From: a virus
DNA: 37,889 nt
IMG/VR virus record: IMGVR_UViG_3300045988_047443
Coordinates: 1 to 37,889 of that record
Reading direction: 5' to 3' (one strand)
The position numbers and the translations under genes are program-made. Shown here piece after piece: positions 26,773 through 27,695 of this stretch. The notes under the pieces are model-generated. The model had not been told where the DNA came from. It saw nothing but the letters and a program-made list of their open reading frames with translations, and did no database searches. Within the stretch, counting starts at the first letter, position 1. Every line of letters starts with the position of its first letter.

Positions 26773-27276
26773 TTATACTTCTGATGTACCTTCTGTAAAT
26801 GTCACTGTGCCATCTGTAACCTTTGCAATACCTACACGAATGTCGCTCGCAAAGTTAATATTGAAGTTGATTTTTGAATCAACACCACTCAATGTATCGA
26901 AAATCAATTTAGCGTCAACTTCCCACGCTTTATAGCCTTTTGTTTTATCTCCGTCAAACATGAATACAAGTAAAGCTTTTGTGTTTACTTCTTCATTGTC
27001 CGGAACGGATTTCATCATCTTTTCATAAATATATTCAAAATCATCTTCACCCTTAATCATTGTTAAATCTTGGGCAATCTGAGGTGAATAGCTCTTTAAT
27101 GATTCTGTAGGATTCTTATCTGCGATAAAGTCATATGTTTCAGTTTCACTGTTAAATGCAATATCCAAAGTTGTAGACTTCTTGATACGCTTATAACCTG
27201 TTCCCATTTCCAAGAACAATCCAATCATATACTTCTTGACTGTTTGTCCTACGCTTACTTCTGTTCCTTGTGTTAT
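26773..27276 (-). CDS. Major tail protein
   Basis: Assigned by position and size. AAGGAGC-TTAATTA-ATA at 27276 (TAATA overlap with the upstream stop). The ATG at 27228 has no SD. Confidence 0.55.
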   Translation of the reverse strand: MTQGTEVSVGQTVKKYMIGLFLEMGTGYKRIKKSTTLDIAFNSETETYDFIADKNPTESLKSYSPQIAQDLTMIKGEDDFEYIYEKMMKSVPDNEEVNTKALLVFMFDGDKTKGYKAWEVDAKLIFDTLSGVDSKINFNINFASDIRVGIAKVTDGTVTFTEGTSEV

Positions 27277-27695
27277 TAATTAAGCTCCTTTCTGTATTTG
27301 ATTTGAATAGTTAACGCATATACTGCTTGACTATCCTCATTTGTGTATAGATATAAACCACTTGAAACGGAAACATCATCACAATATTTGTTTCCGTCTA
27401 GTTGTGGTAATTCTCCTTTTAAATTCTTTTCGTCAATCCATTCTCCTAATTCTTCTAAGAATGAATTGTTGTCTTGCCTTTCGGCTTCAATTTGTGTATT
27501 CCTACGTGCTAGAAACGTGTAGTATTCTGTACGCATTTGAGAGCCATCAATGTATGTATCTACAATTGCATTAGGCTCTTTATACAATGCATAGGAGATA
27601 GCTTGTTGCGCCAAAACATCCGTTTCAATACGTTCATCTATCTGTATATTTCCATAGCCATATAACCATTGAATCAATGCTTTTGATACTGTCAT
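27276..27695 (-). CDS. Tail completion / head-tail joining protein
   Basis: 139 aa in the connector block. Confidence 0.45.
   Translation of the reverse strand: MTVSKALIQWLYGYGNIQIDERIETDVLAQQAISYALYKEPNAIVDTYIDGSQMRTEYYTFLARRNTQIEAERQDNNSFLEELGEWIDEKNLKGELPQLDGNKYCDDVSVSSGLYLYTNEDSQAVYALTIQIKYRKELN

Follow-up and report, generated by a model that had tools for sequence, protein, structure and literature searches.

Translation is known to depart from the standard code, at initiation or afterwards, in several systems. In animal mitochondria, AUA serves as a start codon, and one modified tRNA-Met (f5C34) reads AUG and AUA both at starts and as internal Met. In crAss-like and Lak phages, stop codons are recoded via phage-encoded suppressor tRNAs. 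Anticodon mutants of the Escherichia coli initiator tRNA (amber CUA; GAU, GAC, GAA) from the Varshney and RajBhandary and the Schulman laboratories reportedly start translation at the complementary non-AUG codons, the amino acid being dictated by the new anticodon. Finally, the AUA and AUU starts of Firmicutes (Staphylococcus aureus infC, ccpN, and citZ; bioRxiv 10.1101/2025.06.19.660503), as well as the AUU start of E. coli infC, combine a strong extended Shine–Dalgarno (SD) sequence with a conserved non-AUG codon that the normal initiator reads less efficiently; they are found in a handful of low-expression regulatory genes. Here, we analyze the IMG/VR virus record IMGVR_UViG_3300045988_047443 (all 37,889 nucleotides of it are referred to below as the window), which is the complete genome (37.9 kb) of a temperate siphophage infecting a gut bacterium of the Erysipelotrichaceae. 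Its major tail (tube) protein gene, its major capsid protein gene, and many others are predicted to start at ATA preceded by A, and the same genome encodes a tRNA with the anticodon UAU, tRNA(UAU). We estimate at about 0.75 the probability that this tRNA, apparently derived from an initiator tRNA, decodes the A-AUA starts.

With the engineered E. coli initiators the phage tRNA shares an initiator body and a changed anticodon; however, the former are laboratory constructs, whereas the latter is natural, virus-encoded, and conserved in its clade, with about 17 matching genes in each genome. Such anticodon-switched initiation is so far known only from the engineered mutants, and no natural precedent for a virus-owned initiator tRNA or start codon was found in the literature searched (subscription-only literature was outside the search). 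As in stop-codon recoding, a phage tRNA would alter the decoding of mostly late phage genes, and standard gene finders fail; but stop recoding acts in elongation, while here a sense codon would become an extra start and internal ATA stays Ile-like. Similarly, where mitochondria use one tRNA for both AUG and AUA, the phage would use a separate tRNA(UAU), and its internal ATA is not Met. Unlike the infC-type starts, the ATA starts of the phage are neither rare nor limited to weakly expressed regulatory genes: they include the capsid, tail tube, portal, and tape measure genes, and come with a matching tRNA. All features considered below are on the minus strand, as are almost all genes of the window; their coordinates are given in Table 1.

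The leader of the tail gene consists of AAGGAG, the spacer CTTAATTA (27284–27277), and ATA, whose first base is the last A of the stop codon TAA (27278–27276) of the upstream tail-completion gene; the preliminary description of this stretch had reported the same layout. The codons of the tail frame are TAA (27282–27280), TTA, ATA, ACA, CAA, GGA, ACA, GAA, GTA, with TTA and ATA the sole candidate start codons between this TAA and the first canonical start. TTA was rejected as a start, as the codon preceding ATA varies and at the tape measure gene is the stop codon TGA. The other candidate is the first canonical start in the frame, ATG 27228 (Met17), in which case the ATA and its SD sequence would be an untranslated leader or a chance open frame. 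Public gene calls (P0121–P0126; L103) agree with Met17, yielding tail tube proteins of 151 rather than 167 amino acids, and so do the public tail proteins of close relatives, which have 151 or 144 amino acids and are cut at Met17. Standard gene callers accept only ATG, GTG, and TTG, hence proteins of the clade are truncated at the first canonical start; the capsid protein (272 of 289 amino acids) and the tape measure protein (719 of 859) are shortened in the same way.

Comparative evidence contradicts a start at Met17 and makes it very improbable. ATG 27228 has no SD sequence, as had been noted before: the energy of the SD duplex with the 3′ end of 16S rRNA is −0.8 kcal/mol for this codon and −12.6 kcal/mol for the tail ATA. 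The 16 codons from ATA to ATG are conserved as protein, TxGTEVxxGxT[IV]KKY. Homologues at 62–66% identity (164–177 amino acids) start with M-A-T-(Q/S/T)-G-T-E-V-x-x-G-x-T-(I/V)-K-K-Y-M-I-G-L-F-L and match these codons residue for residue in a full-length alignment from residue 1, their ATG being one codon before the aligned T-Q-G-T-E-V. The tail residues right after the start are TQGTEVSVGQTVKK, while a protein starting from Met17 would read MIGLFLEMG. The ATA, with A before it, is kept in all ten complete genomes of the clade and in 33 relatives, where the second codon varies and a one-codon indel follows the ATA; close relatives have ATA GCA ACT CAA GGA at this site, a one-codon in-frame difference from the window. 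In the alignment with gp21 of Eggerthella phage PMBT5 (33% identity), residue 28 is opposite residue 26, and the lengths agree only if the tail protein is read from ATA.

The capsid gene has the same arrangement. The 10-mer TTAATTAATA of the tail leader recurs at its start (29811–29802), in agreement with the preliminary description, and its first canonical start, GTG 29753, lacks an SD sequence. PHROG 422 covers residues 3–288 of the protein with its profile positions 3–294. The start codon is ATA in 35/35 close relatives (92–100% identity, several IMG/VR samples), although the second codon and the spacer vary, while the aligned codon is ATG in 44/44 relatives at 50–66% identity. The aligned ATG is also the annotated capsid start in Eggerthella phage PMBT5 and Ruminococcus phage RG-TP1, and the N-terminus I-P-N-Q-I-A-L-A-K of the window corresponds to M-P/A-N-x-I-x-L-A-K of distant relatives. 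Judging by these alignments, the tail-tube and capsid genes almost certainly begin at ATA, and the former does not begin at ATG 27228.

As ATG and ATA differ by a single transition, the ATAs might also be artefacts, arising either in sequencing or assembly or from a modified base that is called as A where ATG has its G. We give this next to no weight: no support for it was found, and dozens of assemblies made independently from several samples and sources (IMG/VR, ENA, Logan) agree on these ATAs. One of them contains the phage as an integrated prophage, which is replicated along with the host chromosome. Moreover, ATG starts with the same flanking bases stay ATG, and no motif separates the two classes.

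To find further ATA starts, every stop-to-stop frame was scanned for an in-frame ATA that lies at its extreme 5′ end, follows a strong SD sequence at normal spacing, and has no canonical start in the vicinity. About 17 of approximately 65 genes of the window, roughly a quarter, have an SD sequence with an A-ATA start. By function (Table 1), the tail, capsid, portal, head, 33973, 28054, tape measure, and Dit starts belong to structural genes, the holin and endolysin starts to lysis genes, and the other seven to the early and packaging group. Among open reading frames (ORFs) of 150 codons or more, a strong SD sequence with a 5′ in-frame ATA is seen in 11 of 32 for the window and in 2 of 403 for the host comparison set, 400 kb of the chromosome of GTDB genome G522 (Fisher p = 4e-12). 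The host count is at background level, and a host-wide habit of starting at ATA was rejected. The number of ATA starts per genome is 12–14 in the clade, compared to 0–3, mostly spurious calls, in ATG-clade phages. ATT and ATC are not enriched at starts; ATA alone is. When the capsid, head, and 33973 proteins are read from ATA, PHROG profiles begin at their residues 3–4, and in distant relatives the tape measure gene starts with ATG or GTG at or next to the codon aligned with ATA.

The ATAs do not vary among the ten complete genomes of the clade, except for two ATA/ATG switches: the start at 33973 is ATG in one genome, and that at 33114 is ATA in one genome. In the latter case the ATA allele carries A at position −1, while the ATG alleles carry C, T, or A. 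Mosaic genes of the relatives that are not present in the window likewise start with A-ATA. The preference for A at position −1 is strong: it is seen at 17/17 ATA starts of the window and at 97/102 unique ATA sites of the ten genomes, compared to 153/266 canonical starts (p = 6e-14).

The preliminary description had attributed a special role to the TTAATTA spacer, seen as an element of the two most highly expressed structural genes, with close variants upstream of the holin gene and the 3724 gene. These variants (AATTTAATAGAA and AAATTAATAGAA, respectively) are as claimed, and the 10-mer, with one mismatch allowed, is found more often than expected (31 matches against 20.5); the enrichment is marginal, as 2 of 100 shuffles also reach 31. 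The special role of the spacer does not stand. The approximately 17 genes belong to all classes and use widely differing spacers (gtaagaa, gacgaaga, ttgtcggtca, and others), the capsid spacer itself varies among relatives (tttaatta, ttaatta, tataatta), and the A at position −1 is its sole invariant base. As far as can be read from the leaders, the shared signal is a strong SD sequence and A-ATA, not the TTAATTA spacer.

The tRNA, the likely cause of the ATA starts, had no place in the preliminary description. It was missed by ARAGORN, which found no tRNA in the window, but is recognized by the Rfam covariance model RF00005 at 3108–3180, with a score of 48 bits (E = 2e-9), above the gathering score. 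It reads AGCAGGA UA GAGC AGUAGUA GCUC A CUAGU CUUAUUA GCUAG AGGUC GAA(C)GG UGCAAUU CCUUC UCCUGCA A CCA. In the census of 34 clade contigs, 29 have a single copy; among those with a completeness of 90% or more, the count is 16 of 17. The tRNA is lacking from four fragmentary contigs, one of them starting immediately beyond the tRNA site, and from the recombinant G780. The anticodon loop CUUAUUA, with UAU in place of CAU, is invariant in all copies, while the anticodon stem shows three compensatory double changes (CUAGU/GCUAG vs UCGGU/GCCGA). The cloverleaf is 95% paired, and in an alignment with host and other phage tRNAs its covariation exceeds that of 500/500 shuffles and of all slid controls.

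Several features point to an initiator tRNA as the ancestor, namely the 1:72 mismatch, A11:U24, the AGGUC variable loop, and the host tRNAfMet as the closest relative. Positions 1 and 72 do not form a Watson–Crick pair: all 29 clade copies have A1/A72, and the L324 lineage has C1/A72, as does the host tRNAfMet, whereas host elongators have G1:C72. The D stem GAGC…GCUC, with A11:U24, is that of the host tRNAfMet, while the host elongator CAU and Ile tRNAs have GCUC…GAGC; elongator tRNAs carry Y11:R24. The host tRNAs include one initiator (C1/A72, GAGC/GCUC, three G:C pairs) and two elongators with CAU. Identity of the phage tRNA to the host tRNAfMet is 72–80%, compared to 48–55% for the host elongator CAU tRNAs and tRNA-Ile(GAU), and its 3′ half, CCUUCUCC(U/C)GCAACCA, is nearly identical to that of the host tRNAfMet. 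A73-CCA is also shared with bacterial tRNAfMet, including the host (G522) copy. The differences from bacterial tRNAfMet are UAU instead of CAU, U37 instead of A37, U/G at 31:39, one or two of the three anticodon-stem G:C pairs kept, a short D loop, and G55; methionyl-tRNA synthetase (MetRS) should not charge such a tRNA. Thus, the tRNA exists, is under structural selection, bears initiator hallmarks, and co-occurs with ATA starts.

The tRNA(UAU) was found in 0/33 ATG-clade contigs; nine of these 33 carry ordinary initiator-type tRNA(CAU) genes elsewhere in the genome, and no synteny was seen between the phage tRNA(UAU) and the initiator tRNA(CAU) genes of distant relatives. It is also absent from 12 species genomes of the host genus. 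No phage translation factor was found among the window proteins.

To see how start codons behave with other anticodons, IMG/VR was scanned for tRNAs with initiator-type D arms and CCU or CUU anticodons, and unique sites were counted in each group by the same start-site criterion. The sister loci are IMG/VR contigs L372–L415, with AGG and AAG placed relative to SD sequences at the 5′ ends of long frames. The CCU group (42 loci) has 8 ATA, 29 AGG, and 3 AAG sites; the CUU group (2 loci) has 1, 0, and 5, respectively, one AAG site being that of the capsid gene (AAG GCA AAC GCA TTA). The corresponding counts are 68, 1, and 15 in the UAU group, that is, the clade of the window, and 12, 6, and 11 in ATG-clade phages (540 sites in total). 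Many CCU tRNAs have the acceptor stem AGCAGGA/UCCUGCA of the window tRNA and U37. Hence, the non-canonical start codon follows the anticodon across lineages. A CAU initiator is unable to read AGG or AAG, which differ from AUG by two mismatches, and this is the strongest argument for a role of the tRNA in initiation. A generalization to phage tRNAs that have A37 beside the initiator-like D arm and UAU was not supported, as D arm and UAU are insufficient alone.

The following scheme is the one best supported by these data. The strong SD sequence would place the tail ATA, 8 nt downstream, in the ribosomal peptidyl (P) site, where it would be read by the phage tRNA rather than by the host tRNAfMet via a mismatch. 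The tRNA would have descended from an initiator by a change of the anticodon from CAU to UAU and of position 37 from A to U, and U37 may pair with the invariant A(−1), giving a four-base start signal, A-AUA with 3′-UUAU-5′. As MetRS needs C34, its main identity element, the tRNA is probably charged with Ile rather than Met; it would then be formylated and used in the P site.

Several observations weigh against this scheme. The co-occurrence of the tRNA and the ATA starts inside the clade is a single evolutionary event, and the Fisher value for tRNA against clade overstates independence. The anticodon stem lacks three consecutive G:C pairs: the window copy has A29:U41, G30:C40, and U31/G39, and the second variant has G29:C41, G30:C40, and U31/G39. 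The elbow is unusual, with the T loop UGCAAAU or UGCAAUU, G55, and a short D loop. Internal ATA makes up 1.2% of codons in the phage (102/8301), slightly above 0.9% in the host, as would be compatible with an elongator role. In unrelated contigs, ATA starts are not enriched where a phage tRNA combines an initiator-like D arm and UAU with A37. A possible counter-example is the recombinant G780 (IMG/VR 3300029219_000010; L212–L214), a 43-kb contig in which a different 25-kb segment replaces the tRNA region. It has five ATA starts, all in the shared structural module, and no tRNA is found by Rfam in its assembled part, about 14 kb of the equivalent genome being absent from the contig; its starts may be served by a tRNA located elsewhere, by a helper prophage, or by weak near-cognate initiation. 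Lastly, initiation at AUA by the ordinary initiator reaches 10–30% of that at AUG in S. aureus with an extended SD sequence (bioRxiv 10.1101/2025.06.19.660503), so that a dedicated tRNA is not strictly required.

The S. aureus data, the G780 starts, the internal ATA usage, and the missing G:C pairs all speak for an alternative, in which the ATA starts are read by the host tRNAfMet via a third-position mismatch, aided by the strong SD sequence and by coupling to upstream termination, and the phage tRNA(UAU) is an elongator tRNA-Ile for AUA. Elongator tRNA-Ile(UAU) is indeed carried by T4-type phages. We nevertheless consider this alternative unlikely. Elongator tRNA-Ile is expected to have a Watson–Crick 1:72 pair for EF-Tu, Y11:R24, and a purine at position 37 (t6A); the phage tRNA has none of these, and shares with tRNA-Ile the anticodon complementary to AUA. 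Its conserved 1:72 mismatch and A11:U24, and its closeness to tRNAfMet rather than to tRNA-Ile, are not what an elongator predicts. The invariant A(−1), complementary to U37, is left unexplained, and relaxed near-cognate initiation predicts ATT and ATC starts as well. The AGG and AAG starts of the sister phages with CCU and CUU are beyond the CAU initiator. Further, the most expressed genes avoid internal ATA and yet start with it: no internal ATA is present among the 12–18 Ile codons of each of the capsid, tail, scaffold, and head genes, three of which start with ATA, which argues against a mainly elongator role of the tRNA(UAU). A reassignment of ATA to Met in elongation was rejected too: the residues aligned with internal ATA are V, I, L, and E and not M.

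ATA starts are almost absent from the host chromosome, which speaks against mismatch reading by the host tRNAfMet. The host infC gene starts with ATC, and an ATC start behind a GGTG-type SD sequence appears to be conserved in the host genus and relatives (loci L139–L142), suggesting normal discrimination by initiation factor 3 (IF3) against AUH starts in this host. Together with the 2/403 count, this assigns the ATA starts to the phage and not to the host. One plausible chromosomal ATA start was observed at G522:C39 ~171946 (in L151), aaaaaaggagaaattat ATA gaa aat, with T at position −1; in this frame, the next canonical start with an SD sequence is 223 codons downstream. The host is identified by Logan contig L110, in which an identical integrase is found beside bacterial genes (tRNAs, NanE, PmbA/TldD, SseB): the phage side of the contig is 99.8% identical to window positions 14439–15882, and the bacterial flank has 97.5% DNA identity to G522. 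The named homologues at 68–74% identity are from Erysipelotrichaceae. A megablast search of GenBank phages with the window produced no match, and a scan of genome contigs found relatives at ≤67% identity only and no named close prophage.

Table 1. Coordinates of the tail, capsid, and tRNA features and of other genes with predicted ATA starts in the window
Feature	Position	Strand	Remarks
Major tail (tube) protein gene	26773..27276	-	167 codons and stop; predicted ATA start
ATA start codon of the tail gene	27274..27276	-	One-base overlap with upstream TAA
Shine–Dalgarno AAGGAG of the tail gene	27285..27290	-	8 nt 5′ of ATA
First canonical ATG of the tail frame	27226..27228	-	Codon 17; rejected as start
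Major capsid protein gene	28935..29804	-	ATA 29804–29802 behind AAGGAGG (29820–29814)
Phage tRNA	3105..3180	-	Anticodon UAU (3148–3146), U37 (3145); Rfam RF00005; encoded CCA
Portal gene	35383..36786	-	ATA 36786; PHROG 533, residues 22–462 on profile 27–482; ATA in 9/9 clade genomes
Head protein gene	34577..35386	-	ATA 35386
202-aa gene	33365..33973	-	ATA 33973; ATG in one clade genome
120-aa head-tail gene	27692..28054	-	ATA 28054
Tape measure gene	23232..25811	-	ATA 25811 right after in-frame TGA; first ATG 140 codons downstream
Dit gene	22363..23235	-	ATA 23235; TTG 23229 is an alternative start
Holin gene	20829..21335	-	ATA 21335; second SD and ATA at 21305
GH25 endolysin gene	16777..18219	-	ATA 18219
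HNH-type gene	9005..9583	-	ATA 9583
HTH_36 gene	7558..8298	-	ATA 8298
195-aa gene	3741..4328	-	ATA 4328
Small terminase-like gene (terS)	290..631	-	ATA 631
Further early/packaging-group ATA starts	12749, 10892, 3724	-	From the SD and ATA scan

The product of the tail gene is predicted to be a siphophage tail tube protein, based on synteny and fold matches. The gene is located between the tail-completion gene and the chaperones with the tape measure gene. The AlphaFold2 model of the protein is of moderate confidence (predicted local distance difference test, pLDDT, 66), and its top Foldseek matches in PDB are 9m7c (NF5 tail tube, E = 6e-4, TM-score 0.46) and 6v8i (80alpha). Upstream of the tape measure gene, at 25832–26754, the frames 26754–26392 and 26410–25832 overlap in the layout of a tail assembly chaperone pair, usually joined by a programmed −1 frameshift. 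In the holin frame, the two sites with an SD sequence and A-ATA are ten codons apart, resembling a dual-start holin/antiholin arrangement on ATA starts.

Around the tRNA gene, a 3′ trailer of about 80 nt within 3004–3104 is non-coding between the CCA and an intrinsic terminator (3022–3004). On the other side, a terminator hairpin (3220–3204) ends about 17 nt before the tRNA, so a promoter of its own is not evident. Between the tRNA and the small terminase gene, at 775–2713, there are genes of a protein with a ParB N-terminal domain and of a 435-aa radical SAM protein, with no link to translation found for the pair. The radical SAM protein (775–2082) was rejected as a candidate tRNA-modifying enzyme, as it matches, weakly, the PA0069/Rv2578c type and not the tRNA-modifying families.

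If the tRNA works as proposed, this would be a natural virus that redefines its own start codon via a dedicated initiator tRNA. For the broader picture we lean slightly towards a family of gut phages with private start codons: these would have captured a host initiator tRNA, mutated its anticodon (UAU, CCU, CUU), and placed dozens of genes on the matching starts (A-ATA, AGG, AAG), with, in the present clade, four-base reading via U37 and proteins that probably begin with Ile, and with an orthogonal channel that would keep virion and lysis genes untranslatable without the phage tRNA. The covariation of UAU with ATA, CCU with AGG, and CUU with AAG offers a tractable natural system for the evolution of start-codon identity, and synthetic biology may find in the phage system an orthogonal initiation pair that is ready for use.

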